The notes below the pieces were generated by a model. It saw only the letters and a program-made list of their open reading frames with translations, did no database searches and was not told the origin of the DNA. 64,000 nt of DNA from a virus. Shown piece by piece: positions 5,703 to 49,195 of the stretch. Position 1 is the stretch's first letter, and the number at the start of each line of letters is the position of its first letter. The DNA is taken from the IMG/VR virus record IMGVR_UViG_3300025646_000028, positions 1-64,000 of that record; one strand, 5' to 3'. A program made the position numbers and the translations under genes.

Positions 5703-5712
5703 GAGAAAAATT

Positions 5713-5961
5713 ATGGATGAAGAATTATTTTATCCGATTACTCGTGATGAGTATTTGTTTTTGAAAACAAACCGTCACGACGTACGTAAGTTTGCTAACA
5801 ATCCTGTTGAACGTAAAGATCTAACAGGATTAAAGAAAGTTATATTCGTAGTCGGTATTGATGATACACCACGTCACATTGGTTACATTGATATATGGGA
5901 CATCTGGGAATCTGACCAAGGATTATTCCTTCGTCACTATTCTCATGACAGTACAGACTAA
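5713..5961 (+). CDS. Hypothetical protein between MoxR and vWA genes
   Basis: AGGAG RBS; TAATG coupling to the next gene. Confidence 0.7.
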   Translation: MDEELFYPITRDEYLFLKTNRHDVRKFANNPVERKDLTGLKKVIFVVGIDDTPRHIGYIDIWDIWESDQGLFLRHYSHDSTD

Positions 5962-7550: not shown

Positions 7551-7572
7551 ACGTGTAAGAAAGGAGTATAAT
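7544..7572 (+). promoter_or_regulatory. Possible sigmaA-type promoter for the replication module
   Basis: TAGATA-17 nt-TATAAT, 7 nt upstream of the primase ATG. Confidence 0.4.
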
Positions 7573-7579
7573 ATACTTA

Positions 7580-15524: not shown

Positions 15525-18500
15525 TTATCCTATTACGTTTCTTGACTGTCTCCAACGAACATATTGTCTCCATTGAATATCTTTAACTAATGAATAAGGA
15601 TTTATTTTTGGTTTACGCATACGTCCATACTTATTAAACCAATCACGATAAATATTTTCGTACTTCGCGTATCTACCATTTCTACCGTATCTATATTGCC
15701 GTGGAGTATACTTACCATAATTGTTTATATCATAAGCAAAACCACGGAATGTTGTACCGATAGAAGCTGGACGTGTTTCTAATAACTCTCTAGCTACAGG
15801 AACTTGTGCTGCTTGTTGACGTAAGTTAGTTTGTAACGCCATGTCACTTACACCTGTAACGGTATTAGCTAAACGTCCAACTAATCCTAATGAAGCTAAC
15901 TGATTTAATGCTTCAAATACACTTCGTTTTTCTACTAATGTTTTAACACCACGAAGTATAGGAGACATGCGACCTTCAAATGCTTCTTGTGTATTGTATA
16001 GAATATTCATTACATCAAGTGCACCGTTACCTAAACGTATACCAAAAGTAGGACTTAAAGGAATCCAACCATTACGCATTTGATATTTAATATAATCATT
16101 ATATTCTTTTTCTTCTTCATCAATATATTGACCGTACCAACCGTCAAGGAAGTCAGACATAAATCTCCACCAACGAGGACTGTTTAAACGATGTATCCAG
16201 TTAGTTATTGAACGCACAGGAAAAGAGATAAATGGAATGTCAGCCATTAAACGTTGTTCTAATGGAGATCTTAGACCGTAATTAAACCAGCTTCGTAAAG
16301 ATGCTAATACAGATTCATCAAATGATTTATTGTAAATCATTAAGTTGTATAAAAAGTTTGTAACACGCGCACCGTTTTCAATAAAGGTATTAATACGGTC
16401 ATAACCATCAATTAATGATGCTGTTAAACCTCTGAACGGTCCGCCAAAACCTTTAGCTAACTTACGGTCTTTACGCGCATCTGCAATCATCTTTTTAATT
16501 TCTTCATATGATTTTGAAGACAAATCATTTTCGTCATAACCTTTATAGTTTGCAAATACTTCTGGTAACAATTCAAAATTATCTTTACGCAAGTAGTCAG
16601 ACGTAGCAGCAGTATTCATGAAAGCACTTAATTGTTTTAGTAATGTTTTCTTCCATTTGTTTTTATCATCAAAAATAGCTTTGCCTAATTTAGTAAGTCC
16701 TTTACGAACTTTACCATTTTCATCTCTTGCATCTACGCGTAAACCTGCAACCCACTTGCCGTTAATTTCTTGGTTGTCGTATAGTTCAATGAATTCACCG
16801 AAACGAATGTTACTAACAAACTTAGCTGCGTCATAAAGCACATTTGTATATTTATCAATATTCTTTATTGTTATTAAATTCATTTGTTTTAATAAACGTT
16901 TTACTATAGGTAAATAATATTTAATACGCGGGCTTTCATTTTCTTTAGTTGCCCCAATAGCAACATAACTTTCTAAAACTTCTTTCATTAAACCTAAACG
17001 AGATTCAATTAACTTTGGATTACGTACTTTACTTTTTAGTTCTTTAATAATATCTTCGTAGTGCAAACCAATATTAATAATACTTGCGGTGTGTTCGTCA
17101 CTATACTTTTCATAGTAACTCATAAGTTCTAAAGAAGTCATCGTCATATGGATAAAGTCATTTGACTCTACTGTTTTAGGAAGTATTTGTGCATTGCTAA
17201 ACAACTGATACACTGTATCATTTAAGTTTCTAAATAAGAATGCCGCACTAAACTTAGAAATATTCTTAGATAACAACTGTAATTTATAAGCAAAGAGTTC
17301 GATACCTGCAGGTTTTCTACGGCTAGTGTAAGTAGTTTCCATTGCTTGTATCCATGTATTAAGATCAACAAACCCTACAATAGGTACAGCACCAGTGCCA
17401 TCATCTTTAACTGCGTTATAAAGAGTTCTTAATTCATCTATGCTATTAATCTTAATCTCTTTATAAGTCGGAGTTAAAGCTCTGTTGTCTTTTAATACAA
17501 CAGTCGGATCAATTTGATCATAGACTTTACCGTTGTATACAACCTTGCCACCTTCTTTTTGGTATGCTTCTAATTCTTCTAACGTTTTAAACTTTAACGC
17601 TTTGATTTCTTTTTCAGTAAACTGTGTATACAATTGATCTTTACTGTCTTTTTTAGGATCAAAACGTCTAATGTTGTCTACAATAGATTTATAAGCGCCT
17701 TCATCTTTATAAGGATCTTTAACAATTACTAAACGATAATCTTGTTGACGTGTGCGTAAAAACTCATACACAATTTTTAAACTTACGTCCAGGTTATTAG
17801 GGTTAATCATGTTTGTTAATAACGTAACATCATTAGCCATAGCTAATCTAGCTCTAACTTTAGAACTATCAAGATCTTCTTGTGTTAAATAACGTGGTTT
17901 ACCTACATTGCTGTCGCCTAAACCGTAGCCATCTACTGTACGCAACAGTAAAATTCCGCCACCTAAATTATTAATCAACGCATTTTCTAATGCTTTAGAT
18001 CTTAACTCTTGTTTAGCTTCTTCAATTTGTCTATTTTCTTCTTCTAGTTTAGCGATAGGATCTTCATTATTTTCGTACCATTCTTTAATACGTTCTGTAT
18101 TTAATAACGATTTTTCTTCAGCACTAAGTTTGACTTCTTCAGCTTTGACTGCTTTTTCTAAATCTTTTATTTCTAATTCAATAGCACGTTTACGATTTTG
18201 AAGTGCGTTAAGTTCACCTATACCATTCTTAATTTTATTTTGTAGACGTGCATTTTTTACACGTGGGTTTTGTAGCTTTAATTGCGCACTAGATTTAAGA
18301 TTTAAATCTGCTTGTAGTTTCTTTATTTCTTTAATTCTAGCTATGACTTCTTCTTTTTGAATCAATAATAATTCAATATCTGTTTTTAAATTACCAATAA
18401 ACTCATTGACTTTTGTTGTCTCTGAATCGAATGTTGCGTATTGCAACTTGCTTGTTAAAGCGTTTGTAACTTTATTGTAGGTATCTTTACTTAACTCTTC

Positions 18501-21500
18501 TTGTGTTTTTGAAATAACTTCGTTGTTATTAGTACCAGCTGCACTTACAGCAATTTGTACTTCTTCCATAGATAAACCTTCATCACGAATTTCTTGTGAA
18601 GCATCATCTTCTGGAGAAATAAACACACGGTTACCTTCTTCATCTACAATAAACCAACCTTCATCCATAGCATTAACGTTATTAAAGAAGTTAAAAAATA
18701 AATTGTTAGACTTGTAACGTTTATCAAAAGCTTGTTTAAAGTCAGGATTACGTAGAGCGTAAAACAGTCGTAAAATATTACTCGCATTTTTTACGCTATC
18801 AATACTATTAAAGTTAATATTCTTTGCACCACTGTAACGTTCATTAACTACTTGCACAATAGAAAGACTGCTACGCATAAAACCTATTAGTTTATAGAAA
18901 GGTATGTTAAAGCCATTAAAGAAATTAATACTTTCTTCTAAGTCTTTTTTATTAATAGCATAGTCATTTGGGTTACTTAATGCTTTATTTAATTGACTGA
19001 GACGTTTGTAAAACAGAGTAGTTATTTCATCTGGCATGTATAAGTTTCCAAACACGTACAACTTCAAACGTTCTTTAATTAAGTTCTTAATCGCTGTTTT
19101 TGCACTTGCTTCATCATCATAACTTTCTTGCAAACGTATACGTGATCCAGGGTTTTCTTCATAGTATTCTTTATTTAAACTGGCAGATGTAATACGTTCT
19201 TCTTTTATATCAAGTCTTTCAGTAAAGTCTCGATCAGCGTTAATAGCTCTACCAAGTATAGCTTCTGTAGTGTCACTACCTAAAATAATATTACGCACAC
19301 TTTTACGGGTTGTAATGTTATCTACTTTTCTAGTAAATCGAATATATCTTTCGTTAGAATTTGAATCAATACCATCATGCTTAGCCATGCTAATTGTTTC
19401 TTGTATTAAATTAGACATGTTGTTATTTGCTACACGTTCAATAAAGTATTGATCTAAATAACCTTTTGTTAATTTCTGTAAATCAACCCTTCTTAAAAAT
19501 TCTTCAGCGGCTTTACTACCTCGGAAATAATAAAACAATAATTCCTTTTTAAAGCTAGCACCTAATTCTTCTCCAAGTGATTTGCTATTTCTAAAATTCT
19601 CTATGTAGTTTTTAATAACAGGTTCATTTTTTATTGAAGAGTTTTCTACAAATTCTAAATAGTCTTTAACGGTTATAGTTTCTCTATCCATAAAATTAGA
19701 TAAATTTTCTAATTCAGATTCAGCATCCATCATTGTTTTAACAAGTCTTCTTAAGTCTTTTAAAACATGTTCTGTATCACGTAAAAAATATTTAATATCA
19801 ATTGCAGATTGTTCAGTCCAAATACGTTTAACTTCTTCAACAGTTAGCCCGTTTAAAATATTATAAAGTTCTTCGTAGTTTACATTTTCTGCTTTTGCTT
19901 CGTCTGCTAGTGTCGCTAACAAACTACGTACAGTTACTTCACCTTCAGTATTAGTAGCTCCTATAGCTTTCCAGAATATACCTTGTTTAGATTTATTAAT
20001 GTGTTTGTATTCTGCAATAATTGAAGATGTAAATTGATCTTTACGTTTATTACCTGCGTAATTAACACCGTTTTTAGATGCGCGAATACGGCCTGTTGTA
20101 GATTGTTCTAGTTTTTTAGACAACACTAACAACACTAAACGTTTATAGTATTTACGATAAGCTTGTTTATCTTCTTCAGTAACTCTATTAGTATTATTAA
20201 GAATGTCTTGTTCTTCTTGAGTAAAGTTATTAAGATATTCTTTCTTTAATTTTTCTGAAATAATAATGTCTTCACCGTATTCAAAGCTGTTAAAGTTCTT
20301 TTCAATTGTATAAATTGTATCAATCTCATCTTTAAAAGTGTCGTAATAATCTTTAAGTTTATCAACATTAAAGTAGTCTGATACTTTTTGAATGCTTGTA
20401 TCTTCAACACTAGATACATCATTACCTTCATTGTTTATACGTACATGTGCGTTGACATATAACCTTAATGTATCAACATCATTAGTGTCTAATGGTTCTA
20501 AATTATTTTCTACACTTTTTGCTAGTTGGTTATATGTGTCTCCACTGATTAATCGGTACATTTCTACATTTAAATATTCACCTTCTTCTCCACGAATATC
20601 TTTATTTAAAGTATTTTTACCACGTTGATTACGTCCTACACTATAGCTAATTAATTTTGCGCCACTCATAAAGTGTTGATCGTTTTCTACTTTATCTTTA
20701 GCAAAAAGTTCTCGATTAGCTTTTTCTAAGTACGATATTAAATTACCTTTTTTATCAATTTCTTCATCAATAGAGTAGTAGTTTAAATCGGTAGCTAATA
20801 GTTCTCGTAAAGGAGCATTATCTCCTTCAACATCAGAAAATTTTAATAAACCCATACCCATAGTATCACCGTCGTTATCAGCACCCATCATGTTGTATGC
20901 GTATACGTTAACGTTAACTGCATATGACGTGCTAAAACCTATAGCTTTTAACACAGGGGTAGCTGCGTAATCTTGAACAGGTGAACGGACTGCTAAAACG
21001 TACGTGTATGTTTGGTTAAGTTGGTACCCATCTAATTTATTAGTACCACTTTCTACTGCTAAATGTAACGCACCGTTTTCTTCAGCTAAAATACCACGCG
21101 AGTTTAAAAACTCTATACGTTGTTCTATGTTTTCAAAACCTAAAATAGTGTCAATATATTCTTTAGATTTTTTAGCATTTAAAGGTTCAGTTTTAATTAA
21201 AGTATTACCTTCTTTGCTATCTTTAACTACAATAGCGTCCCAAGCATCTTTAGGTAAAGTTATTTCTCCAGCATCAAGTGTAACGTCCACAAGATATTGA
21301 GCACGCACACCGTCTATACGTTTAAATCTTGATTGGTAGTAAGCACTATTCTTACCACTATACATTTTCTTTAATGCATTGCTTTCAGTATTTTTTACAA
21401 TACGATCAATGTTTTTATTGTAACCTTCCTTAGGACCACTTGTAGTGTTTCTCAAGTACAAGTAGTTTAAATATTGCATACCTTGTTCTCTTACATATTC

Positions 21501-30500: not shown

Positions 30501-33500
30501 ACCTTCTTTTATTTGTTTTTCTACTTCAGCTTTTGATGGGAAGTCATAGAAAAACATAAGACTTAATTTATCACCACGGAAAATTAAATGTTCCATATTA
30601 AAACCGTAACGGTCTTTTTTATTTGTAATTTGCTGCGAAAGTCTTAAACGCTTTTCTACGTTTGCTAACAAAGCTGCTTCTGGTTTTGAAATAGTTTTGT
30701 TTCTTTTTTTAATTAATAATTCATCACGTGTAGTTTGTAATAAGTTTAAGTAATCAACAGCGTTAAATCCATCTAGTTGATCAGCTACTCGCTTGTTCAT
30801 GTATTGATTAATTGAAATTAAATAAGACTTAAGTACGTATCCATAAACAATATGTTTTACAATATCATCCGGACTCTTAAAGTCTTTACGTGTAGGATCA
30901 CTATTATAAATTTTTTCTGCAAGACTGTATATACCTGAACCGTTTTTAGGCTTTAAGTCTAAATCAAAGTTTTTAAGAGGTATAATTTTTTCTAACTGTG
31001 CATACAGTTCATCTAATGTAATACGATCTTTATACCAATCTTTCCATGCGTTTTTTAAACTACTTAAATGAGAATAGTTAATTGTGTCTTTATTATGTTT
31101 AGCAATAAGTTTATAGTGACGTTTACGAGCTTCTTGTATAATGTCGTAAAAGTTTTTTAAATGATATTGTTGCGCATTTAAAAGACTTATACCTTCATCT
31201 GCGCTACCGTATCTGTTGTATGCAGAGGCTTTAAATAACTCAAGCATACTTTTCTTTCTTTTCTTATAAGGGTCTCTAAAGACTTTTTCAAGATCGGTTA
31301 CTATAGGACTTGTTAATTCTTTATTAATTTCTAAGAAAGATAAAACATTTTGTGAAGCGGTATCTTCGCTGAACTGTGTTTTAATGTGCTGTTGAATTAT
31401 AGGTATAATTTTTTTGTATGCGATTTTGTTTGTTTTTTCAATGTGTTTTACAATTCCATAAATAGAGTTCTTTAATCTAAGTATTTCTGAAGTTGTTTCA
31501 GGTTTTAAAACATTGTAGTAATTTATTTTATCTACTAAAGGATCATCACCATAAGTTTTTTGCATGTATGTTAATGCTTTTATAATCTTATCAAACAGTC
31601 CTCGTTGTACTAAGTTAGCTACTAAAACCGGGTCGTTTAAATCTTTTTTAAGCTTACTTAAATCGTAACCTTTCTTAATAAATTTTCCTTTAAAGAAGTT
31701 AACACCTATAGTTTCTAAATCGTAATCACCTTTGATGCGATCATAGAAATCAAAAAACATATTATTAAGTTTAGCTTCTTCTTGTATACGTCTAAACGTT
31801 TCGGTGTTAAATAAATTAGTACCTTCACCGTAGCTCTTTAAGATCGGCACAAAACCTTGTAAGTTCTTTTTTGTATAACGTTGTTGATAAAACAAACTTA
31901 ATTTATTTAATAACTCACTAGCTGTAACTTTGTTTGTAGTATCTAAACGTTCTTTGTAAATAAGGTTTAAATCTTTTAACCACAAATCTACAATAACTTT
32001 TTTACCTTGCACGTTTAATACTTCAGGTACAGGTTTAATTGTTTCATCTCTAACAGTGTAACGATCAACCATATCAAAGTCGTCTTTATTATTTTTTTGG
32101 ATATCTTCTATTTCATTATATTTAGTTTCAGATAAAATAAACACTTCACTAATGTTGTATTCTTCTCCGTTCATAACACGTTTATAAAGAGCTGCTAAAC
32201 TTTCGTTGCCACCAAAACTCCATTGTTCGTCAGGTACAACAAAAACAGCTGTACCATCTTCTGTTACAATTCGAAGATCAGCATTTTTTGTTTGCTCATT
32301 AGCTGTTAAGTTATCTTTAGCTTTATTAAATTCTTTTTTGTCATTTTTACCAAACACATGTCTTACAAAATAAAGATTTAGTTTAGGAATACCAGGCACA
32401 TCTGTTCTATCTTTAAACACTTCTCGTCTACGATAAAGACGATCTGCACCTGTAGGATCAATGCCAAGTACGTAATCTTTTAAATCTGTATCAACGGTAT
32501 TGTTAAAGTAGTCTTGTGCTAAATCATCGTCTGCTTGCATGCGAGTATAAATTGTGTCAAAGTCTGCAAATGCATCTAACTCAATGCGTTTATTAATTTC
32601 TGTGTAATGTTTTAAAACAGCTTGAAGATTACCAATCTTTGTTGTTACTCTATTTACGTAACGTTTATATCTTGGTGTATCTTTATCTTCAATATTTTGT
32701 TTTTTAAATGTAGCTAGATCTTCTTTAGCATCAGCTATTCTTTCTTCTATGCGAGTAAGATTACTGTCTTGCGCTAAACCTTTTACAGTTTTACGATCTT
32801 TGAAAAAGATGTCGCGTATAATTTGTTTAATATTACTGGGGCTAACAATGACACTTTGTTCATTACCTTCAGGACTTTTAATCGTGTAGCCTTCAAAGTC
32901 TTTTGGATTAATTTGACTTAATTTTAAAAGCGTTAAAAGTAATAAAGTATTATTATTACGCAACACACCTTTGTTATCTAATAAATCTACGGTAAATAAA
33001 TCTTTAACAGTGCCGTCTTTGTTAGTTGCTTTAAAAGTGTATGTTTTGGGTAAACGTGTATTACCTTTGTTTTCTTCTGCTGTATAACGTTGAGCCGCTC
33101 TAAAAATATAATCCGCAAACGTTCTAAATCTATTATCGTAAATAGCTCTGAAATCTATTTTATTTGTATCTAAGTCTGTTTCAAATATTTCATTGACTAA
33201 TAATAAACGTTGTCGTAACTCTATAACACCTGGATCTGAAAACAAGTTGTACAACTCTTCAGTAGCTCCTGGTTGCTTCATGAATATTTCTTTGTCAATA
33301 CTAAAAGAGTTGTATGTTAGTAATGTACCAAACTCTTGTATTAACATATCGTAGCTTGCAACAGCTGCGGCTTCTAAACTAGTTACTTTTGTAGCAGGAT
33401 CTAATGCTGCCATACGATTACCTATTGTAGTAACTAGATTTAAAACATCTCTTCTTGTAACACCATGAATAAAAATTAAATCAAACATAGTATATTCAAT

Positions 33501-36500
33501 AGCTTTATTCATTTTTTCTGTTTGGTATTTAAAAATTATTTCTCCGTCTCTTTGTTCGATACGGTTAAAATTATCAAAGCTTCTTAACGTAGTTTTATTT
33601 GCATAGTCTTCTTGATAATATTTAGACACCGCGTTTAAAAGCTTAAACATAATATGTCCATACTGATTAGAACGCGCACCTTCTTTAGCTGACGCAAGGT
33701 CTTTAAATATTTCTCTTATTTCTTGTGACTCTGCAATAGCTTTTTTACGTATAGAAGGATTTAAACTAGCGTTATAATCAGATATGCTTTTCTTTAAACT
33801 ACTTTCAAATCTTCGAAGATCAACAGTTAATTCGTTTAAAGTGTCTAAAAATAACGATCCGTATTTATTTTTATTTAAAATAGCATGTACTACTTTATTT
33901 GTTTCTCTTACAATATCGTTTAGTTCTGTAAACTTATTTTGATCTTCACTTATTTTAAGTAAATATTTTCTAGCATCAATATTAGTTGCATCTGCTCCTA
34001 AACGTTTCTTAGCAACATTTATTAATGCACTTTTAAACATTGCAGTATAACTACGTTGATCACCGATTCGTTTAGTCAAATTAACGCGTACATCAACTTT
34101 ACCATTTTTTAAATAAAGCTTACTAATTTCTTTAGCAATAGTTTGACGGCTGTCTTTGCTTTTAATTTTTAAATCAGCAATTGTAAGCAGCTCCGGATAT
34201 TTCTTTATTAACAACGCAATTTTAAAACTAAACACATTAACTTGTTCTTCGTACTCAGAAGTACTACGTGCATTATTCTTTAAAAGCTGTAAAATGTTAA
34301 CGTCTTTACTATTTTTAACATCATAAAAAAGTGACATGTTTAAACTGTATTGGATAAAAGGTGGTAGTAAAACAAAAGGTTGTTTTAATTTTAAAACTTT
34401 ACCACGTCCTTGTGCTTGATCTCCAGATAAACGTACAACACGATTTGGATCTAACAAGAATTGTACAATATTAACTAAAGCAAGTTCACGTCTTTGGTTT
34501 ACACTGCTAGGTAATTTTGAAATATCATAATCTAAAGCAGTACGAATAGTAATAGGTCCGTACTTTGCGTCTTTAATTCTAGTAATAACATTTTCACTAC
34601 GTTGATCTTCGGTTAATTTTTTATTAAACTCACTGTCGCTAGCAGATTCATCATATAAAGAAACAATGCGTTCTTTTTCTAAACGATGTTGTTCTCTTTC
34701 TGCTTCAGCTTTATTAAAACGTTCTTCTGTTTGAACACGAACACCTTCATCTTCAGGTGTAAGATCATCTTCCGCGTTCATTTTAAAACGTACAATAGAT
34801 GCGTCGCGTAAACCTTTAATGTCAGGTTCAGCAATATTAATTAATTCATCAACAAATTCTGACTCCATTAAGTCATTAACAATACTTGTAGCAATTGCTT
34901 TATTTTTTAAAGCCTGTTGTATATCGTATTTAGAAATATCGTCAGGTAATATTTCACTTATACTAGAGCGTTTAAATAAAGTAAGTTTGTTTTTATCGTG
35001 GTCAACGTAATCATATAAATATGTTTTAACATATCTATAGATAGGAGTATTTTTTAAATTAATTTCAAATCTATTTCTAATATCATCAAGTAATTCTTTT
35101 TGATAGTTAGTTAAGTCGTTTGTTGTTTTTGCAAAATCATCATCAAGTTCTTTTAATAACTCCGCTGCTTTTTTAAATGCCAAAACAATAGGATTAGTAC
35201 TGCTGTTTAAATCTGTTTTGTTTTTATACAACTTCATTTGTTCTTGCATAACATAACGATAAAGCATGCTTGTTGTTAAATTATCTGCAAGAATTGTTGT
35301 AGTGCTTGTAGTTTTTATTTGACTTACAGCTTCAATAGATGCGTATATCTTTCTAAGCGTATACGATTCAAGTAGTTTATCTTTATCTGCTTGATCTAAA
35401 TTAGATTCATTAATGTAGGCAACTAATGTTTTAACACGGTTAGCTTTAGATAATGCGGTCCATTGTTTTAAGTCAATATCAAAAAACTTGTGGTTAAAGT
35501 TTAATAAGTCTTCAAACACGTCTTTACCTAAATACTGATTTAAAAGTTTATTAACTTGTGTTTGAAAATTATCTTTTAATACAATACCAACATCGTTTAT
35601 TTCTTTAGCATTTTTATAGATATCAATAAAAAATTCTTTTGTAATGTTTTCATTAACATCAACGGTAACTTTTTTACCGTTTGCATCTGTATAATCAATT
35701 TGAAATTTAATTCCATTTAAAAAATTAACGCGTTGAATTTCATTCATTACTTCTAAAGCACGATCTAATTTATCGTTAACAAACCCAGCTATAAGTTTAG
35801 TAGGGTCTTTTTCTCCAGCACGAATACGTTTTTGCAGTGCTCGATAATCTTCTCGATTAATTTGAATCTTACCTTTAATACGTTTGTTACCTGAAGTATA
35901 ACCTTCTAATTCTTTTCTTGCAGTTTCAAGTTTATCAAGCTTTGCAATAACAGCATCAATATCTTTTTTAATAGTTTGATAACCAGCATCGTTGTTTAAA
36001 TATTCAATATCAAATTTACTTTCTAGTTCTTTTTGTTTTGTTTGAAGATCAGTAAGTTTTTTGTTTTCATCTTCAATGTCAGATTTAGTTTTAGTTAATT
36101 TGCCATCTAATTTTTTAAATTCTAGTTCTAAAGATTCGCTAGCCTTTTGTGGAATCAAATCATTGATATACGCTCTAAATGCATACAGCATACTTAATGT
36201 ATTGATTGCATAATCATCTGCACGTATGGTAGCTAGGTTTAAAATGTTTAATGCGCTTTCGTAATATGTAATATATTTTTCGTACACAAGATCATTTTTA
36301 ATCATCATTTCATAATCTAAAAATGCTGCGCTTAAAGCGTTACGACGCAATGTTTGATCTTTCGAAAGATTTGTTTCGCCACGTAATTTGTTTAATTCGT
36401 CAAGGTACTGATCTTTGTTAGCCTCCGTAATTGTTATAGCGGCTTGATTACCAATTTTTACATCAACTGCTCTCATTGTAAAACTACGTCTATGATTACG

Positions 36501-39236
36501 CAAAGACTCTATTTGTTTTTTAACGTTGTCAATTAAATCTTGATATAAACTTACACGGCTACCTGCTTCTTGATTAATCTTAGCAAACTCAGGATCGTTT
36601 TGTATTTTAGTCATAATGTTGCTAATTAACAATTCTTCTTGTCTTGTTAGCGCTCTATTAGGTGCTAAAATAAGTTTTAAACTTTCTTCGACATCAAGTT
36701 TATTTTCTTCCATTGCTTTTTTTAAAGCATCTACAGTGGGTACATCTTTTAAATTTTTAATAGTTTCATCTAAAGATTCAATAATACGCATTCTTTCTTT
36801 TTCAGTTGCCATTGTTTGACGCGTTTTGTCGTTAAAATTACGGAGTAATCTACCTTCACCTAATTGTATTAAACGACCAATAGGATTTAATGCAAAAATT
36901 AAACCAGCATTTAATTTATCTGTTAGTGTCATGTAGTTAGCAAACGCATCAGATGCTTCGTAATATTTTTTAGTATCAGCAAGATTTAATTTTAATTTTA
37001 AATCCTTAATTATTTTTGTACCAACAACGTCCATGTCAAAAGAACCGTAACGCATACCAACTAGTTGTATAAATTTATTCCAATTGTCAATTTCAGACTT
37101 TGTTACATTATCAGGAAGCTTTCCTGTTTTATCGTACTCAGTTAATATTGCTTGCTTTCTTTTAACTTCAGCTGCTAAACGTTGTACTTCTTTATTGTTT
37201 ACAGTTAAAGCACTTCTATAAGTACCACCTATAATATCTTTAATAGTTGCTTCTAGTATTTTAGCTGTGCCATCAACATCAAAAGAAAGGTTACCAATTT
37301 TAAAACCTTTATTTTGTTGTACACTTTGCTCCATTAAATATTTAGTTAAACCTTTATAACCTTCAGTAAGGTATGCATTAACTGCACCATAGATTAATCT
37401 TTGTGTAGTAGGTAAATTTGTTCGTGCAAACAAACCACGATTAGATTCACTTACTAATTTTTCTAAACCGTTTTTAATTTTTACACCAGGTACTCCAATT
37501 GATTCAGCAATTTCAACACGTTGAAGTTCTTTAGTAATAATTGTACCTATCATTTTAGTGCGGCTAGTTTTTAAATTACTTTGAACCATTTCATCAAAGT
37601 TTCGTGGATCTAAAACAATTTCACCTACAACACCCAATACTGATTTAACGATAGGTGGTGCATCTTTAAGAACATCTGTTTTTTCTATAATATCTGCAGC
37701 TGTTAAAACGTATGCAGGTTTATCACTATAACCCCACGCTCTTGCTAGTGCGTCACGTTTAGCATTAGGATCATTATCTGCTAGTCCTAACAGAATAGAT
37801 TTTGTTCTTGTTGCACCGTACAAGTTATCTTGAATATCACCAAATAACGAAATAGCAGATACAAAATCTGAACCTTCAGGATTATATGTAGGTAAAGCTT
37901 CATCTATTTGACGTGTCAATGGAGCAATACTTTGAGATACAAACATTGTTAAACCTGCACGTATTTGGTTACCAATAGCGTTTTCACCTAAAAATCTTGG
38001 TAGACCATAAAGTAATTTGTTACCTACTGTTGCACCTGTGTAACGACTGCCAGCTCTACCAATAAAATAAGGTATAGCAATTTGTGCGGTTAACGCTGCT
38101 ATAGTTGATACAGGTCTTGCAGCAATATTAGATGCTAAGTTTTGTGCAAATAACTCTTGTGCCTTTAAACCACTTGGTGATAATGATCTACCGATAGATT
38201 CACCTATAGCATATCCTACGCGCATCGCACTAACTGCTGTTGATATTAAACTACCAACTGCAGATATAATTGTACCAATAGGTGCTGCAGGAGTGTATTC
38301 AACTATGTCCCCTAGAACCGCTGTAAAGTCACCTAATGTTTCAATACTTGATAACACAGCGCTTCCAATATCACCTGCTCTAAGATCTTGTACAAGTCCT
38401 GCTGCTGACAATCCTAAAGATGCTACGTCAACACCAAGACCTAAAAGTGGAGTCAGCCCTGCAGCTCTACGACCAACAGCTTCTCCAGCTTCAATAGCTT
38501 CTTGAGCCACATCTACACCAACTCTAGCTAATTTTTCTGCGCTTTCTTTAGCACCTACTATAGTTGATTTACGAATACTGTTTAAATTATCTACAGTTTT
38601 ATTAATATCTTCAAACGCTTTTTTAGCATCATTTAAATCTTGAAGAGCTTTTAATTTTTTAGGATTTGTATTTTTGTAGTATTTAACTTTATCGTAGGTT
38701 TCTTGTGCAGCAGATAAAGTAGCTTCTATAGTTTTTTTATTTTCAAATGCAGTATTAAAATTTTTAACAGCATCAGCGACTTTAGCTGCTTGAGTATTAT
38801 ATTTGTTAATAGATTCTATTTGTGACGTAGTGTAACGTCTAAACCCTGCAGCAGCTTGCGCATTTCTACGACTACCTGCTAATGTATTATCAAGAGAAAT
38901 ACCACGTGATCCTAAAAATAAACCACCTTGTATTGCCGCAGTAGTGCCGGCACCAACGATACCCCCTATAGTGCCTAAAGTATTTTGTAATTGTTCATCA
39001 TTAAATCCATAGCGTTCACGGATCTTTTCCATGTACGTAGCACTGTTAACTGCAAAAGGAGTTGTAGCAAATTGACGAAGTGTTTCTTCAAACGTCTGAA
39101 CATTTGTTCTTTGTGCTTGACCAAAACCTCTAAGCCCACGATAGTATGGCCCAAGCGCAGGACGTGCATATATGTTAGCAGGGTATAACTGTCCTCTGTT
39201 AAATACCGCTGGCTTTAGTGGATATAGTAATGCCAT
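15525..39236 (-). CDS. Giant (7903 aa) internal virion protein: single-chain two-barrel RNA polymerase with DEDD exonuclease-like domain
   Basis: Uninterrupted 23.7-kb ORF downstream of the capsid genes; beta-like GNKTWLGLHSGFKG and VNSRG; beta'-like KRIDG, VRSP and GADNDGD; IDLET and AHNGFRFD exonuclease motifs. Confidence 0.85.
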   Translation of the reverse strand: MALLYPLKPAVFNRGQLYPANIYARPALGPYYRGLRGFGQAQRTNVQTFEETLRQFATTPFAVNSATYMEKIRERYGFNDEQLQNTLGTIGGIVGAGTTAAIQGGLFLGSRGISLDNTLAGSRRNAQAAAGFRRYTTSQIESINKYNTQAAKVADAVKNFNTAFENKKTIEATLSAAQETYDKVKYYKNTNPKKLKALQDLNDAKKAFEDINKTVDNLNSIRKSTIVGAKESAEKLARVGVDVAQEAIEAGEAVGRRAAGLTPLLGLGVDVASLGLSAAGLVQDLRAGDIGSAVLSSIETLGDFTAVLGDIVEYTPAAPIGTIISAVGSLISTAVSAMRVGYAIGESIGRSLSPSGLKAQELFAQNLASNIAARPVSTIAALTAQIAIPYFIGRAGSRYTGATVGNKLLYGLPRFLGENAIGNQIRAGLTMFVSQSIAPLTRQIDEALPTYNPEGSDFVSAISLFGDIQDNLYGATRTKSILLGLADNDPNAKRDALARAWGYSDKPAYVLTAADIIEKTDVLKDAPPIVKSVLGVVGEIVLDPRNFDEMVQSNLKTSRTKMIGTIITKELQRVEIAESIGVPGVKIKNGLEKLVSESNRGLFARTNLPTTQRLIYGAVNAYLTEGYKGLTKYLMEQSVQQNKGFKIGNLSFDVDGTAKILEATIKDIIGGTYRSALTVNNKEVQRLAAEVKRKQAILTEYDKTGKLPDNVTKSEIDNWNKFIQLVGMRYGSFDMDVVGTKIIKDLKLKLNLADTKKYYEASDAFANYMTLTDKLNAGLIFALNPIGRLIQLGEGRLLRNFNDKTRQTMATEKERMRIIESLDETIKNLKDVPTVDALKKAMEENKLDVEESLKLILAPNRALTRQEELLISNIMTKIQNDPEFAKINQEAGSRVSLYQDLIDNVKKQIESLRNHRRSFTMRAVDVKIGNQAAITITEANKDQYLDELNKLRGETNLSKDQTLRRNALSAAFLDYEMMIKNDLVYEKYITYYESALNILNLATIRADDYAINTLSMLYAFRAYINDLIPQKASESLELEFKKLDGKLTKTKSDIEDENKKLTDLQTKQKELESKFDIEYLNNDAGYQTIKKDIDAVIAKLDKLETARKELEGYTSGNKRIKGKIQINREDYRALQKRIRAGEKDPTKLIAGFVNDKLDRALEVMNEIQRVNFLNGIKFQIDYTDANGKKVTVDVNENITKEFFIDIYKNAKEINDVGIVLKDNFQTQVNKLLNQYLGKDVFEDLLNFNHKFFDIDLKQWTALSKANRVKTLVAYINESNLDQADKDKLLESYTLRKIYASIEAVSQIKTTSTTTILADNLTTSMLYRYVMQEQMKLYKNKTDLNSSTNPIVLAFKKAAELLKELDDDFAKTTNDLTNYQKELLDDIRNRFEINLKNTPIYRYVKTYLYDYVDHDKNKLTLFKRSSISEILPDDISKYDIQQALKNKAIATSIVNDLMESEFVDELINIAEPDIKGLRDASIVRFKMNAEDDLTPEDEGVRVQTEERFNKAEAEREQHRLEKERIVSLYDESASDSEFNKKLTEDQRSENVITRIKDAKYGPITIRTALDYDISKLPSSVNQRRELALVNIVQFLLDPNRVVRLSGDQAQGRGKVLKLKQPFVLLPPFIQYSLNMSLFYDVKNSKDVNILQLLKNNARSTSEYEEQVNVFSFKIALLIKKYPELLTIADLKIKSKDSRQTIAKEISKLYLKNGKVDVRVNLTKRIGDQRSYTAMFKSALINVAKKRLGADATNIDARKYLLKISEDQNKFTELNDIVRETNKVVHAILNKNKYGSLFLDTLNELTVDLRRFESSLKKSISDYNASLNPSIRKKAIAESQEIREIFKDLASAKEGARSNQYGHIMFKLLNAVSKYYQEDYANKTTLRSFDNFNRIEQRDGEIIFKYQTEKMNKAIEYTMFDLIFIHGVTRRDVLNLVTTIGNRMAALDPATKVTSLEAAAVASYDMLIQEFGTLLTYNSFSIDKEIFMKQPGATEELYNLFSDPGVIELRQRLLLVNEIFETDLDTNKIDFRAIYDNRFRTFADYIFRAAQRYTAEENKGNTRLPKTYTFKATNKDGTVKDLFTVDLLDNKGVLRNNNTLLLLTLLKLSQINPKDFEGYTIKSPEGNEQSVIVSPSNIKQIIRDIFFKDRKTVKGLAQDSNLTRIEERIADAKEDLATFKKQNIEDKDTPRYKRYVNRVTTKIGNLQAVLKHYTEINKRIELDAFADFDTIYTRMQADDDLAQDYFNNTVDTDLKDYVLGIDPTGADRLYRRREVFKDRTDVPGIPKLNLYFVRHVFGKNDKKEFNKAKDNLTANEQTKNADLRIVTEDGTAVFVVPDEQWSFGGNESLAALYKRVMNGEEYNISEVFILSETKYNEIEDIQKNNKDDFDMVDRYTVRDETIKPVPEVLNVQGKKVIVDLWLKDLNLIYKERLDTTNKVTASELLNKLSLFYQQRYTKKNLQGFVPILKSYGEGTNLFNTETFRRIQEEAKLNNMFFDFYDRIKGDYDLETIGVNFFKGKFIKKGYDLSKLKKDLNDPVLVANLVQRGLFDKIIKALTYMQKTYGDDPLVDKINYYNVLKPETTSEILRLKNSIYGIVKHIEKTNKIAYKKIIPIIQQHIKTQFSEDTASQNVLSFLEINKELTSPIVTDLEKVFRDPYKKRKKSMLELFKASAYNRYGSADEGISLLNAQQYHLKNFYDIIQEARKRHYKLIAKHNKDTINYSHLSSLKNAWKDWYKDRITLDELYAQLEKIIPLKNFDLDLKPKNGSGIYSLAEKIYNSDPTRKDFKSPDDIVKHIVYGYVLKSYLISINQYMNKRVADQLDGFNAVDYLNLLQTTRDELLIKKRNKTISKPEAALLANVEKRLRLSQQITNKKDRYGFNMEHLIFRGDKLSLMFFYDFPSKAEVEKQIKEGTLEEIQDVKIDEYISEHISKKFNIELDQSDRLLLTVFAGDVIETATDHLYAKTTSTSNQYVPKVVTLDRVIKQTEALKEQILSEGFTQDQLQTMIALATTKKNEGVYLTGEDALKDKAIFGEEGKVPGKVNTYINELQRIKSLRYKIKKTKLTYKEIFKVNQIDLLETSTRFFDYFKNVIRNNDFNLDSEEIVRMLKEFGISRDEVFSILEGEYKTIQHFINAHIKTNDPSAEGDDFTKANLLIWFINYHKDQYIRNVLKRPNYTVSLEDIKAVRDFELIREKDNNLRLQTISINNLLGEGNAITNSVNFHFNRGFSILREIDRQTTYYNDRLGRIILDDTNLRDNEEYSGDFNGIIYKQNNIKLVAADTQRTLYEPIFKEGDAGFVGSRIYELMLMRKEFINDMMAENMATNKNVGSANQLYNSLRITWTDLLEKLKKDFKPGQFIRVRDITAAVGLFKKDTSSLNTFIDYYNMLLRDAKEKYILDNAGTKKSPEELSELFDAEIKALTDKIIEVSATNNKIVEFNETFVKGILGYIYLARFVDHTDIPEIQNRIVENVSKQFEDDIKYKSYKYKTITSVIKRIIQDESLTEFQKKKELAKLQGKNDFEELTLEQQQTINMGLRIQKFIKSSENFYNPNQFYDTFDVAYGNKATVGAKTTILSKREAAEELAIKILNDEIKKRQSGLNKTIARADDIKNQEKLFTIPKIKTSNETVNERLATPDYYTYDNKQRIVGTDDLYKQADLASFILQEKITEADKLIAEEEKTFKEKKLELIKALFTNYPGLRNYYMDQREAEIKLLIEKEEGELLKLNSKTDNKYLKEYDAYLKDVEDVKKIEDSVEYKVNSFYWDTYLQLRREGVPPTEALKTIYSFFKEELLELKISTEAEFITLHNKTIKEKVFENLNKIRDRRDARGRDSEGKLIKKYTAYAAKRAIHERNLQNYEEELTSLQIDDFENVDTALETLSKIIKDFKEESKSVLAKTFKAIDDKGTFTKLSDTEKALITKRHKALYNKQLSYLKVLYGFIRDFNVQFGIAGKKDLGVVKNDKLISLDVLTKAVQNEISILRNHANTLANRRIVDIPEAVDLPKLEGEEEFKLNLYFTVFNELKINKRSSDLKRELTDAEAARIENETREQFKDITPLTAFNLIFNFIKHPNNYDAISKSFGSKQVELDFSDLADDKLRFAQALLANVNNALVNKFNISVEYFSNKFVEYINKAEKTIGSIGLEKTLLDRKGKVPTVSDLDHAKKLFSNLYKDIEGEAIDNMDDQTVASLIRFVTNSKDNFEIKNYKRYKKQFLDKLKNVNDFKQALNDLPKRREGIETLKADLEIKKEALEKTKADRQAAYNKELEVAGDKLSNLDLFKHYYKARIKKDAAEIDVINIVLKIVQEKFPGQDIEFLKTFIKSRGDYALHNSVVDSLITLLNYIHQKPASKNFIVIDLETYRYNGEDTPYQITMITVKDKQLIINDVYINSGLFYDGVNDDGSYKENMLKFYEQQKRIWKKQWEKEDLSPEEFEVKAKIKMDELIARVKQVKNNDNFINTFIQKVGDANVDIVAHNGFRFDFNIIKNFISRIGDNLIVNEYYRNLSEENSLETIFNKIDKTELDADEITTEYIKELQEASDRLIKTIETKKEFITKQELDRIKEDLDRINNKITALKINQAIKKASEQTGYILNDDIKNQIFDVSTGAIKYLRDQLTKYFDKKVTDAIKTEIKNDLVLRFMEGITLENKTPAVEKIIIEYVDKLIKGVEKNYNETLNGAVIKYGATSGVGVRSELKERAIKLAGVKLYDKDVELNIKESIEILDALQAANSTLAEVLKTGLTSEEIVLQKQKEIEKKKETIRKHKETISRLREEVAAKVISDDEIVKQIISSAQKIDKLTTSGYGQTVSIALNSVKEIRSSTTATKELGLLETQKEMADRDLKLKLSNIIRLAAAIRSGKEITDYKVFLEGSVDTRILDVLNKSITKEDALKAINEELKALSKQTVLREDGKLEDAVVETFLKNILKDYQDELKVYLKQTYTKLVEALTNLLKIKTFKGISIANNNILFENKPIDLISLRKMYGVITDSENQEDYQKYTAAFTKVLNLLENYEENLSLSQISFEDLIKETTSTKLVVFNEYLNDRKNGLLQAKAWLENYVESDLPGKTDLNVLLLTYSNVMESITGLETKIENLSNETIYSLITGEKPSNRMNDQQFDSIASSTLDLKEVFESATLKRLGLKVHYDDPEKGNDILAIRTVHNTVLSKAIRQDNAIDNTYLYSVSDDEYNLVSTASFNAKKNRIEIKLRYGYIPAHLKYDGGSTAGFQTLEKNINVYFNSEDAKFDSDFTFKELENLLDEKKFYWTKDGKAKYSILPNVRRDEVFYAKGVDSGKAASDVLIKFLIKNKDNFRRVNSKTEASKITEAEEANEAIYQKTLTHEKFAANSKYLRVLNISEMIRNQFFAEVALYQKQRQLTERDLKTIYIGIYNRLTSRYKALEPGSIVNQINADYTYDYNIESFDDAFLKENNIDLQLNSEGSAGAVLKYKTRYALNFPFLLSTNAIRTMLSAKHLLAKYTSLKFLNNIYGDIPDKVAPGKKLLTTFLSNPGKYIKNKEVINNFVRLTKSANTQIFMPNVMSKSLYKSYKDDTEVHQFGFTVPIAFANDPRIPLDEIAVDADFYYSTEYGNGNKTWLGLHSGFKGAVRPIQGLYKTYGALFVASANSVNSRGTAGIYGEMLFNYIRAYLLNETKKDGSSLIPARTLRFFKAIDPYLRKTFGPLLNKEDNVLLVDSSFDSYELLEGLSKEIKDKLSNDEEFKSLITDTTKDTELYNVLILRDFKEEDAEKDVPAIITPAYIKTKSDQFITEDYDMNKVHERRLIKTDLTATTYVRGLAYVYADHENSAQAMATQTKFNTAGKLIRNVVDSNNNPIKGTYVSPTVSIPIINKIGLDNFNKVFGPNNDNLNLLSNIRSLGFKTVIKNATGLEDEEEVNTVERLEELQIKLTEAYQKKEIHEYVREQGMQYLNYLYLRNTTSGPKEGYNKNIDRIVKNTESNALKKMYSGKNSAYYQSRFKRIDGVRAQYLVDVTLDAGEITLPKDAWDAIVVKDSKEGNTLIKTEPLNAKKSKEYIDTILGFENIEQRIEFLNSRGILAEENGALHLAVESGTNKLDGYQLNQTYTYVLAVRSPVQDYAATPVLKAIGFSTSYAVNVNVYAYNMMGADNDGDTMGMGLLKFSDVEGDNAPLRELLATDLNYYSIDEEIDKKGNLISYLEKANRELFAKDKVENDQHFMSGAKLISYSVGRNQRGKNTLNKDIRGEEGEYLNVEMYRLISGDTYNQLAKSVENNLEPLDTNDVDTLRLYVNAHVRINNEGNDVSSVEDTSIQKVSDYFNVDKLKDYYDTFKDEIDTIYTIEKNFNSFEYGEDIIISEKLKKEYLNNFTQEEQDILNNTNRVTEEDKQAYRKYYKRLVLLVLSKKLEQSTTGRIRASKNGVNYAGNKRKDQFTSSIIAEYKHINKSKQGIFWKAIGATNTEGEVTVRSLLATLADEAKAENVNYEELYNILNGLTVEEVKRIWTEQSAIDIKYFLRDTEHVLKDLRRLVKTMMDAESELENLSNFMDRETITVKDYLEFVENSSIKNEPVIKNYIENFRNSKSLGEELGASFKKELLFYYFRGSKAAEEFLRRVDLQKLTKGYLDQYFIERVANNNMSNLIQETISMAKHDGIDSNSNERYIRFTRKVDNITTRKSVRNIILGSDTTEAILGRAINADRDFTERLDIKEERITSASLNKEYYEENPGSRIRLQESYDDEASAKTAIKNLIKERLKLYVFGNLYMPDEITTLFYKRLSQLNKALSNPNDYAINKKDLEESINFFNGFNIPFYKLIGFMRSSLSIVQVVNERYSGAKNINFNSIDSVKNASNILRLFYALRNPDFKQAFDKRYKSNNLFFNFFNNVNAMDEGWFIVDEEGNRVFISPEDDASQEIRDEGLSMEEVQIAVSAAGTNNNEVISKTQEELSKDTYNKVTNALTSKLQYATFDSETTKVNEFIGNLKTDIELLLIQKEEVIARIKEIKKLQADLNLKSSAQLKLQNPRVKNARLQNKIKNGIGELNALQNRKRAIELEIKDLEKAVKAEEVKLSAEEKSLLNTERIKEWYENNEDPIAKLEEENRQIEEAKQELRSKALENALINNLGGGILLLRTVDGYGLGDSNVGKPRYLTQEDLDSSKVRARLAMANDVTLLTNMINPNNLDVSLKIVYEFLRTRQQDYRLVIVKDPYKDEGAYKSIVDNIRRFDPKKDSKDQLYTQFTEKEIKALKFKTLEELEAYQKEGGKVVYNGKVYDQIDPTVVLKDNRALTPTYKEIKINSIDELRTLYNAVKDDGTGAVPIVGFVDLNTWIQAMETTYTSRRKPAGIELFAYKLQLLSKNISKFSAAFLFRNLNDTVYQLFSNAQILPKTVESNDFIHMTMTSLELMSYYEKYSDEHTASIINIGLHYEDIIKELKSKVRNPKLIESRLGLMKEVLESYVAIGATKENESPRIKYYLPIVKRLLKQMNLITIKNIDKYTNVLYDAAKFVSNIRFGEFIELYDNQEINGKWVAGLRVDARDENGKVRKGLTKLGKAIFDDKNKWKKTLLKQLSAFMNTAATSDYLRKDNFELLPEVFANYKGYDENDLSSKSYEEIKKMIADARKDRKLAKGFGGPFRGLTASLIDGYDRINTFIENGARVTNFLYNLMIYNKSFDESVLASLRSWFNYGLRSPLEQRLMADIPFISFPVRSITNWIHRLNSPRWWRFMSDFLDGWYGQYIDEEEKEYNDYIKYQMRNGWIPLSPTFGIRLGNGALDVMNILYNTQEAFEGRMSPILRGVKTLVEKRSVFEALNQLASLGLVGRLANTVTGVSDMALQTNLRQQAAQVPVARELLETRPASIGTTFRGFAYDINNYGKYTPRQYRYGRNGRYAKYENIYRDWFNKYGRMRKPKINPYSLVKDIQWRQYVRWRQSRNVIG

Positions 39237-39248: not shown

Positions 39249-39276
39249 ATTATAGCATAAAAAAAACTATCGTAAA
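39249..39276 (-). promoter_or_regulatory. sigmaA-type extended -10 promoter of the giant gene
   Basis: TTTACG-16 nt-TATAAT with TG extension (TGCTATAAT), 12 nt upstream of the ATG. Confidence 0.7.
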
Positions 39277-39298
39277 CATCACGATAGTTTTCTTTTTT
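39259..39298. terminator. Intrinsic terminator (potentially bidirectional) ending the capsid operon
   Basis: AAACTATCGT/ACGATAGTTT stem flanked by A and T tracts. Confidence 0.75.
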
Positions 39299-47619: not shown

Positions 47620-47639
47620 AGGGTATCACCTACCCTACA

Positions 47640-48791: not shown

Positions 48792-49195
48792 TCTTTGTTT
48801 TCTCCTTCGCCGTTAAAGGCTTTTATTTTAATTTGCATTAATTCTTGTGTTCGCAAATTATTTCTTAATAACATCTGATGTAATGATACCATATCTTCTG
48901 AACTTTTAATATATTCATCAAAAAGTTTAGCAAGATCATTAAACTTAGAACTAAGTAATTCATATTGTTTAATTTTTGTATCTAATGCCATTTGAACATC
49001 TTTTAACTTTACTTCATGTTCTTTTTGAATTCTAATAATTTCTTTATCTTTATCAAAGATAGTCTGTGTTTTTTCGTCACGTTCTTTAATAATTTGTTTT
49101 AGATTACTTTCACAAGTAGCGCAATTACTACATACATTATCTGTAAGTAATACACCTTGATCTAATGTTTCTACTGTTTGTTTTTTATTTGCCAT
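48788..49195 (-). CDS. Coiled-coil protein (135 aa) with CxxCxxC
   Basis: Heptad-like composition; own extended -10 promoter. Confidence 0.65.
   Translation of the reverse strand: MANKKQTVETLDQGVLLTDNVCSNCATCESNLKQIIKERDEKTQTIFDKDKEIIRIQKEHEVKLKDVQMALDTKIKQYELLSSKFNDLAKLFDEYIKSSEDMVSLHQMLLRNNLRTQELMQIKIKAFNGEGENKE

Follow-up and report, generated by a model that had tools for sequence, protein, structure and literature searches.

Virion-carried RNA polymerases (RNAPs) are known from three kinds of phages, namely the N4-like phages, the crAss-like phages and P23-45, and in all of these the polymerase is either fused to or accompanied by large proteins. The passage of proteins of hundreds of kDa via a channel of ~35-50 Å is a general puzzle, to which the subject of the present work is relevant: a giant gene of 7,903 codons encoded by the viral record IMGVR_UViG_3300025646_000028 of IMG/VR (72,764 bp), whose first 64,000 nucleotides, hereafter the window, were analyzed. 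Its product is devoid of cysteine and is predicted to contain a complete two-barrel RNAP within a single chain, and we consider it probable, mainly by analogy with the above systems, that it represents a virion RNAP which is packaged and ejected as a fusion to its own delivery modules.

In the N4-like phages the virion RNAP (vRNAP) is a single polypeptide of ~3,400-3,500 amino acids (aa), as exemplified by N4 gp50 and DEV gp71. According to the published accounts, N4 gp50, DEV gp71 and the vRNAPs of roseophages lack cysteine (PMC11445570, PMC2784036), and the gp71 homologs of 191 Schitoviridae contain on average 0.00075% cysteine as against a proteome mean of 0.865%, a disparity linked by the authors to passage across the envelope; suppression of cysteine is further described as conserved in the ejection proteins of the Schitoviridae (PMC11445570). 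These proteins are reported to be packaged and ejected through the tail (PMC11445570, PMC13434306), with the 3,500-aa gp50 translocating like beads on a string via a channel of ~35 Å (PMC13434306). The absence of cysteine from the N4 vRNAP and its exit via the tail, on which an initial annotation of the window drew for its interpretation, are thus in print (PMC11445570, PMC2784036). Like these proteins, the giant is a single polypeptide of a podovirus genome, is essentially free of cysteine across its family, and has its RNAP core placed between large N- and C-terminal regions, the N-terminal part of DEV gp71 having predicted transmembrane helices (PMC11445570). It differs in being 2.3 times longer and in possessing an exonuclease-like domain. 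Moreover, the core of the N4-type proteins is a T7-like single-subunit RNAP (PMC2784036) as opposed to the predicted β/β′-type two-barrel core of the giant, and the N4 vRNAP chains gave no match to the giant in sequence searches of the PDB.

In the crAss-like phage crAss001, the RNAP-associated proteins gp47, gp49 and gp50 have been found in virions along with the cargo proteins gp45, which has an N-terminal transmembrane helix, and gp46, and partial unfolding upon ejection has been proposed (PMC10172136). The crAss-like RNAP block and the giant are alike in combining both barrels in one chain, and in both cases the giant genes terminate the virion module and face the replication module (PMC7886860, PMC10172136). 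The five cargo proteins of crAss001, at one copy each, sum to ~845 kDa (masses from PMC10172136), compared with 906 kDa for the giant; however, the three to five open reading frames (ORFs) of the crAss-like phages correspond to one ORF in the window phage. The third system, P23-45, encodes gp96 (5,002 aa), in which an RNAP is fused to a tape measure protein and exits through the tail, with transcription proposed to be coupled to the entry of DNA at the pore (PMC10770324). The giant shares with gp96 the fusion of a two-barrel RNAP to a very long protein; however, the RNAP of gp96 is N-terminal and the remainder is a siphovirus tape measure, whereas the RNAP of the giant occupies 68-82% of the chain in a podovirus-like phage. 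Finally, the polyvalent proteins of phages are similarly very large, multidomain and encoded among virion genes, include virion RNAPs and nucleases, and are predicted to be packaged and injected (PMC5512222). In contrast to these, no named polyvalent domain could be confirmed and no peptidase domain was found in the giant.

The giant ORF constitutes 37.05% of the window, as the initial annotation had estimated, and 32.6% of the record. A word-indexed search recovered four proteins (7,805-7,959 aa) sharing 42-51% identity with it over residues 5700-6600, and an exhaustive HMMER pass over 1.84 billion representatives returned just 19 relatives of residues 5300-6499. Both searches pooled yield 11 giants of 6,661-7,998 aa, the window protein included, which are colinear over their full length and share 22-52% identity with the window protein: 38-52% in the case of the homologs of 7,805-7,959 aa, and 22-24% for the more distant ones. 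Additionally, uninterrupted frames of 7,606-8,453 codons are present in four related viral records. These long open frames, together with the colinear and diverged relatives, exclude that the frame is open by chance or through an artefact of assembly, and the giant ORF is one real gene.

The complete lack of cysteine, which had been noticed by reading the translation, was corroborated by a scripted count (0 in 7,903 residues). On the basis of position-specific base composition, ~83 + 20 (~103) in-frame TGT/TGC codons would be expected where none occurs; in the remaining two frames of this DNA, such triplets number 122 and 449, and 1,598 codons of the gene are a single substitution away from a cysteine codon. 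The 25 other ORFs of the window that reach 150 aa have 39 cysteines in 10,188 aa (0.38%), at which rate the probability of finding none in 7,903 residues is ~7e-14. The early proteins do contain cysteine, as had been claimed: the replication/early ORFs of the (+) strand have 30 in 3,659 aa (0.82%; Fisher p = 9e-16 versus the giant). The other ORFs of the (-) strand, which mostly code for virion proteins, have 9 in 6,529 aa (0.14%; Fisher p = 8e-4). The virion module is therefore cysteine-poor as a whole, and even against this background the giant shows a significant deficit. Across the 11 giants there is but one cysteine in 84,682 residues, which shows that cysteine is selected against throughout the family.

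An explanation that stops short of delivery is that this depletion reflects a general constraint of the oxidizing extracellular milieu, i.e., one of virion stability, which would be silent on any unfolding or threading of the protein. Nine further (-) strand ORFs devoid of cysteine, including that for a 1,319-aa tail fiber, speak in its favor. Nevertheless, the portal, a 1,333-aa protein and further ORFs of the virion module keep 1-3 cysteines each as opposed to none in the giant, and the level in the giant family matches the extreme reported for the N4-like ejection proteins (PMC11445570). On balance, we regard virion stability as an unlikely sole cause. Yet, as virion proteins here do avoid cysteine, the cysteine signature alone cannot separate a protein that resides in the particle from one that is threaded through the tail.

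The 41 shorter relatives and fragments contain 10 cysteines in 33,432 residues. Some of these rare residues lie near the ends of truncated relatives, namely at positions 2034 and 2041 of 2,051 in P0009, at 140 and 141 of 143 in P0021, and at 30 and 38 in P0039. Several of them (those of P0021, P0039 and P0016) are situated in the unaligned ends of truncated predictions, whereas the two of P0009, although in its truncated C-terminal end, are inside the block aligned by BLAST. Such residues could represent frameshifted tails or junction cysteines; a junction pattern was considered and rejected, the cysteines being sporadic with no established pattern.

Central to the functional interpretation is the region of residues 5350-6450, for which an AlphaFold2 (AF2) model was built from a 17-row alignment of the family (mean predicted local distance difference test, pLDDT, 79.4; predicted template modeling score, pTM, 0.78). 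A Foldseek comparison of this model with the PDB listed 50 matches, all of which are chains of RNAP entries (E = 1.2e-3 to 1.5e-2, probabilities up to 1.0); among those listed are bacterial β′, archaeal A′ and eukaryotic Pol I/II largest subunits, as well as the non-virion RNAPs of AR9 and PhiKZ. In all 50 of the VIA-align rows shown, residues 60-509 of the model are superimposed on β/Rpb2-type chains (Z 12.4-14.2, root-mean-square deviation 3.4-7.1 Å, 207-356 residues aligned). VIA-wide, a structure search independent of Foldseek over 48,161 representative PDB chains, recovered just 22 chains with Z of at least 8, the best 17 of which are without exception RNAPs. These comprise nine second-largest subunits matching residues 1-509 of the model (Z 12.3-13.7), seven largest subunits matching residues 529-1098 (Z 8.7-10.7), and QDE-1, which spans both halves (Z 8.8). 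In the same search the non-virion phage RNAPs of AR9 and PhiKZ attained Z of 13.2 and 12.5, with lower scores for P74 gp62 (7.0), P23-45 gp96 (6.5 and 6.2) and plant RDR2 (6.1).

Inspection of the 11 giants reveals the hallmarks that might be anticipated from these structural matches. The β-like half contains an invariant block, K5589-T-W-L...G5597-F-K5599-G5600-x-V5602, and the β′-like half an invariant R6084-S-P-V-Q-D along with G6118-A-D6120-N-D6122-G-D6124, of which the DNDGD (6120-6124) is present in 11 of 11. The K...GxKG block and DNDGD presumably correspond to the GxKG motif of cellular β and the NADFDGD motif of β′. Both features of the two-barrel superfamily are hence in place: a β′-type barrel with the DxDGD loop and a second, β-type barrel with conserved basic residues. 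Based on the structure prediction and the motifs, residues 5350-6450 are predicted to form a complete single-chain two-barrel RNAP, with the β-like half preceding the β′-like half; the RNAP part proposed by the initial annotation is thereby upheld at the level of fold and motifs. In structural terms this RNAP appears to have more in common with the multisubunit type than with the QDE-1, P23-45 or crAss types. Indeed, gp96 of P23-45, at Z of only 6.2-6.5, falls well below the multisubunit RNAPs. With respect to the crAss type, gp66 of Cellulophaga phage phi14:2, which we take to be PDB 6VR4, is the natural point of reference; the phi14:2 protein ranked 50th in a search of the BFVD viral folds (E = 0.16), and no crAss entry was found among the 50 rows shown of the VIA-wide search or by sequence and profile searches of the PDB.

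Upstream of the RNAP, an invariant (I/V)D(L/M)ET motif (Exo I: D4356, E4358) and an invariant AHNGxxFDF motif (Exo II: H4474, N4475, G4476, F4479, D4480), both retained in 11 of 11 giants and in six of six aligned loci, suggest that a DEDD-like domain is likely to be present, for which an exonuclease activity may be inferred. The corresponding profile evidence is below threshold throughout: Pfam DNA_pol_B_exo2 matched with E = 0.0055 (16.8 bits against a cut-off of 24) and the Rv2179c-like family with E = 0.12, while a six-sequence profile run against the PDB retrieved exonuclease regions of family B polymerases (E = 0.009-0.017) and TREX1/2 (E = 0.36-2.3), i.e., matches which are all below significance and overwhelmingly of one fold class. 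A candidate Exo III, Y4590-x3-D4594, is kept in three of the six aligned loci, these being the closer relatives, and is not invariant in the 11 giants. Accordingly, the nuclease part of the initial annotation is plausible as regards the Exo I and Exo II signatures, and falls short as regards support from hidden Markov models (HMMs).

Conservation among the 11 giants peaks at residues 1-100 and 300-560, 4320-4500, 5400-5650 and 5790-5860, 5967-6160 (more weakly to ~6440), and 7100-7903, above all 7619-7894. Judged from the alignments, the two ends thus appear to be the most conserved non-catalytic parts of the giant. The N-terminal module (Table 1) matches, through residues 1-605, residues 1-362 of a distant 4,949-aa relative (BLASTP E = 2e-18). 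A Kyte-Doolittle scan identified only two strongly hydrophobic 19-residue segments in the entire protein, both in this module, and they constitute a candidate membrane-inserting hairpin. A sub-threshold match of residues 185-276 to the Pfam diphtheria toxin T domain (E = 0.0075-0.02) serves as a lead only, and a language-model feature search with the N-terminal module yielded viral hypothetical clusters alone, at scores <0.9, with RTX and TspB at chance level.

The C-terminal 285 residues are the best conserved of the protein, with 70 positions invariant in the 11 giants, and match residues 4689-4948 of the same relative (E = 1e-30). The three strings quoted by the initial annotation, ENGARVTNF, FNYG and IPFISFP, do occur here, at residues 7620, 7651 and 7667. 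The likeness to the helical modules of podovirus ejection and large polyvalent proteins which had been read into them did not, on the other hand, hold up. The AF2 model of the C-terminal region (pLDDT 68.6, pTM 0.56) found no match in the PDB by Foldseek (best E = 0.17), and in VIA-wide its residues 375-506 met only four-helix-bundle look-alikes (Z up to 8.9, within the noise of helical proteins), with no match to the conserved core at 7619-7894. A lead to the polyvalent family LPD38 (PF18857), scored at 0.95 by the language model with 12 of 30 matches in that family set, went unconfirmed, as hmmscan of the C-terminal 404 and 854 residues returned none with E up to 10. A search of the whole record for PF18857 likewise gave no match, this being a weak test in which the control genomes were silent too.

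The middle region, of ~3,800 residues, is low in glycine and probably helical. It is less conserved, with on average 0.29-0.47 of the 11 giants identical to the window protein per 100 residues, and no internal repeats were detected in the giant, self-BLAST being without a match below E = 0.02. Searches of Pfam, PHROGs and NCBIfam with four tiles spanning all 7,903 residues gave nothing significant, nor did sequence searches of the PDB; the sub-threshold noise of the tile scans included Diphtheria_T, MCM6_C, Intein_splicing and PspA, among others. The description of the long stretch ahead of the nuclease as unassigned is in keeping with these results, and about 5,000 residues (561-4319 and 6451-7600) are without a family match. 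The resulting order of domains is an N-terminal module with hydrophobic segments, ~3,800 residues of spacer, the DEDD-like domain, the RNAP, and ~1,450 residues ending in the conserved C-terminal module.

Table 1. Features of the giant gene and its upstream region in the window
Feature	Position	Strand	Residues	Remarks
Giant gene	15525..39236	-	1-7903	7,903 codons ATG to stop, then stop; 906 kDa, pI 8.3, 0 Cys
Hairpin and putative sigma-70-like promoter	39249..39291	-		Stem 39288-39281 / 39273-39266, flanking A and T runs
N-terminal module	37557..39236	-	1-560	Gly/Ala-rich, many conserved Gly
Two hydrophobic segments (candidate hairpin)	38214..38465	-	258-282, 317-341	Kyte-Doolittle scan
Middle region	26280..37556	-	561-4319	Low Gly, Lys/Glu-rich, no internal repeats
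Likely DEDD (DnaQ / PolB-exo)-like domain	25737..26279	-	~4320-4500	Exo I and Exo II motifs
Predicted beta (second-largest subunit)-like half	21663..23012	-	~5409-5858	Structure alignment and invariant block
Predicted beta' (largest subunit)-like half	19896..21605	-	~5878-6447	Catalytic loop at window 20865-20879
C-terminal module	15528..16382	-	7619-7903	Contains ENGARVTNF, FNYG, IPFISFP

The above-mentioned 4,949-aa relative (locus L020, G005:C1:32770-47622), from a distant 85.9-kb viral record, places these modules in a wider context. It is likewise free of cysteine, and its BLASTP similarity to the window protein is confined to the N- and C-terminal modules, besides which it has the RNAP motif in the form NLDFDGDG at residue 2130; the exonuclease region was not detected by BLASTP and the middle region is absent. 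Hence, the two ends and the polymerase would appear to be the conserved core of a wider family, with the ~3,800-residue spacer and the exonuclease-like domain belonging to the subfamily of the window protein.

The initial annotation had also raised the alternative that the 906-kDa product is a precursor from which separate channel, nuclease and polymerase proteins are released by cleavage, either ahead of assembly or in its course. Polyvalent phage proteins are indeed described as often being processed by an embedded metallopeptidase, DdrB of P1 being cleaved before packaging, although the same source has the N4 vRNAP packaged unprocessed (PMC5512222). The long, poorly conserved linkers between the domains of the giant could also accommodate such cleavage. 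Against it, the giant lacks HExxH and Walker A motifs and has just four conserved histidines (4329, 4474, 5551, 6620), no protease family was found in it or in the scanned ORFs, and none of the 11 giants is naturally split. Naturally split forms were entertained as evidence for module boundaries and rejected, since the short forms that were checked have their starts within conserved motifs (P0025 at the INKSKQG block, P0040 in MMGADNDGD, P0048 in Exo I) and are therefore truncations or assembly errors. Taken together, these observations render proteolytic maturation very unlikely.

The genomic setting supplies a further line of argument. The (+) strand between 2300 and 14936 codes for a DprA-like protein, an AAA+/clamp-loader-like ATPase, a primase, a DnaB-type helicase, DNA polymerase I, an exonuclease and a Sak4-like protein. 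Upstream from the giant, the (-) strand codes for a 112-aa ORF, a head-protein-like ORF, the 1,319-aa tail fiber, a cement-like protein, several uncharacterized ORFs, and a portal of the SU10/P22 type, with the large terminase encoded past the portal, on the same strand and beyond the window. The giant is accordingly the last gene of the late/virion module and is convergent with the replication module, a layout that recurs at locus L009. It appears to have its own sigma-70-like promoter (TTTACG, 16 nt, and TG-n-TATAAT ending at 39249; 10 of 12 matches with an extended TG), overlapping a hairpin which a promoter scan scored as terminator-like on the (+) strand. From the -10 element to the ATG there are just 12 nt without a Shine-Dalgarno motif, whereas many neighboring genes have AAGGAGG. 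This pattern suggests late transcription by the host RNAP and a near-leaderless, probably weakly translated message, which would fit a low-copy component of the virion.

For a polymerase that is expressed late, a role in early transcription requires carriage in the particle, and this is, beside the cysteine signature, the main logical argument for packaging. It also bears on the contrary proposal that the giant is a non-virion intracellular enzyme, i.e., a late or middle RNAP or a transcription-replication scaffold that is never packaged, its lack of cysteine being a lineage habit of late proteins. In support of this proposal, the other late-strand proteins are also cysteine-poor, the closest structures are RNAPs of the multisubunit type, including the non-virion ones of AR9 and PhiKZ, and vRNAP-type promoter repeats were not found in the early region. 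However, the giant is more depleted in cysteine than the late module itself, and this extends over 84,682 residues of diverged relatives; the terminase, which is late but stays outside the mature virion, keeps 6 cysteines in 625 aa. Further, a late gene cannot supply an enzyme for early or middle transcription unless this is carried over from the previous infection, and the conserved hydrophobic N-terminus and non-catalytic C-terminus have no obvious role in a cytoplasmic enzyme. A purely intracellular function hence seems quite unlikely.

By comparison, the architecture of the giant fits an ejected protein: the N-terminus is hydrophobic and conserved, an RNAP follows, the C-terminus is conserved as well, and the gene closes the virion module. 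The favored interpretation is that of a packaged and ejected vRNAP. In such a scheme, the giant would be expressed late, driven by its own host-type promoter, and a few copies would be packaged into the capsid, the conserved C-terminal module being a candidate packaging or docking signal. On infection, the partly unfolded chain would thread its way out via the portal and the tail channel, either preceding or accompanying the DNA; its hydrophobic segments near the N-terminus would engage the host membrane, and the RNAP would refold inside the cell and transcribe the early genes. The exclusion of cysteine would be explained by disulfides or other thiol chemistry which, if formed outside the cytoplasm, would prevent the chain from unfolding, threading or refolding, a constraint of the kind proposed for the N4-like ejection proteins. 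The packaging, ejection and membrane insertion of the giant, and the roles of its ends, are in this manner inferred by analogy. Volume presents no obstacle: at ~1.2 Å^3 per Da, 906 kDa amounts to ~1.1e6 Å^3, which is small relative to the capsid cargo zones of crAss001 of up to 5.1 MDa (PMC10172136).

Several observations weigh against the favored interpretation. For packaging and ejection, the case is built solely on analogy and on where the gene lies. Sequence searches of the PDB retrieved no RNAP, whether with single sequences or with a 7-sequence RNAP profile, and the Foldseek E-values of the RNAP model are all >1e-3. Neither terminal module could be assigned to a family or a fold. As all virion-module proteins of the window are cysteine-poor, and nine have none, avoidance of cysteine may mark a "virion protein" rather than a "threaded protein". 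The early region showed no recurrent motif that might be a vRNAP promoter. The record, which is linear, is ~79% complete, such that the missing ~20% could encode a second RNAP or further ejection proteins. Lastly, the nearest cultured relatives are Paenibacillus phages and strong Shine-Dalgarno sites are numerous here; if the host is monoderm, the periplasm-based rationale offered for the N4-like phages does not apply as stated.

A bolder variant of the packaged and ejected vRNAP, which we advance tentatively as a somewhat doubtful possibility, is that the channel former, the nuclease and the early RNAP are all fused in one cysteine-free thread of ~0.9 MDa. It would leave the particle N-terminus first, with the hydrophobic hairpin inserting in the host membrane, and the RNAP, tethered at the entry pore via the ~3,800-residue helical spacer, would pull the genome in by transcription. 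Host or incoming nucleic acid would be the target of the exonuclease-like domain at the site of entry, and the C-terminal module would be a capsid or portal anchor that leaves last. If true, no larger protein would be known to pass through the tail channel of a virus, and the giant would combine in a single chain an apparatus that other podoviruses spread over three to five ejected proteins.

A virion RNAP within a giant, ejected, multidomain protein is a known kind of system; the family of the window protein is new and without a library model, there being none in Pfam, PHROGs or NCBIfam. Residues 1-600, 5001-7000 and 7300-7903 were without a match when compared by tblastn with 50,697 deposited phage genomes, and no description of the giant family was found in a search of the literature that left supplementary RNAP-family tables outside its scope. 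In the absence of both a family model and a deposited match, annotation pipelines would miss the giant and score such phages as lacking a polymerase. The family is about twice the size of its analogs, N4 gp50, the crAss gp66 block and P23-45 gp96, and unites in one chain a two-barrel polymerase of the cell type with an exonuclease-like domain and with putative modules for membrane engagement and packaging. This natural all-in-one fusion is also well suited to investigating in which order and direction proteins are ejected. Further, the near-absolute ban on cysteine common to the giant and the unrelated N4 polymerase would furnish independent, convergent support for the idea that exclusion of cysteine marks capsid-threaded proteins.

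As to the affinities of the phage, the portal (61704-63443, (-) strand), which matches the SU10 and P22 portal families of Pfam, found just two phage records, the Paenibacillus larvae podophages SV21 and API480 (25.5-25.8% identity). These are also the best matches of the DNA polymerase I (10312-12300, (+) strand; 28.8-30.2%), with 22 Bacteroides phage records among 687 weaker ones. In contrast to crAss-like genomes, the portal and polymerase relatives are thus those of Paenibacillus podophages, and Shine-Dalgarno sites are used; the phage is, on this evidence, classed as podovirus-like and not crAss-like. A Firmicute may be guessed as the host, no relative of the C-terminal module having been found in bacterial or archaeal genome contigs that would furnish a host clue. 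Both SV21 and API480 (45 kb) encode, where the structural module ends, a hypothetical protein of 1,630 aa (that of SV21 at L003 2723-7615); when the SV21 protein was compared by BLASTP with the terminal modules of the giant, the only parts compared, no significant similarity emerged (best E-values 0.034 and 0.33).

Among the other genes, no tRNA genes were found in the record, nor any lysis gene from which the type of host envelope might be read. The DprA-like ORF of the early region (2300-2998, (+) strand) matches DNA_processg_A over a short stretch (E = 1.7e-9). The nine cysteine-free (-) strand ORFs other than the giant, inclusive of the 1,319-aa tail fiber, are located within 43660-51930, 57679-60232 and 63443-63898. 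The 1,333-aa protein (52331-56332, (-) strand), which has two cysteines, has no match in PHROGs or Pfam. The head-protein-like ORF (39708-41504, (-) strand; 598 aa) owes this designation to a weak PHROG match (E = 1.5e-12), and its C-terminus shows a sub-threshold match to CBM_5_12 (22.4 bits against a cut-off of 26.2). Finally, a 419-aa ORF of the virion module (56322-57581, (-) strand) contains a BspA-type leucine-rich repeat (Pfam LRR_5, E = 2.8e-9), and might on this account be a receptor-binding protein.

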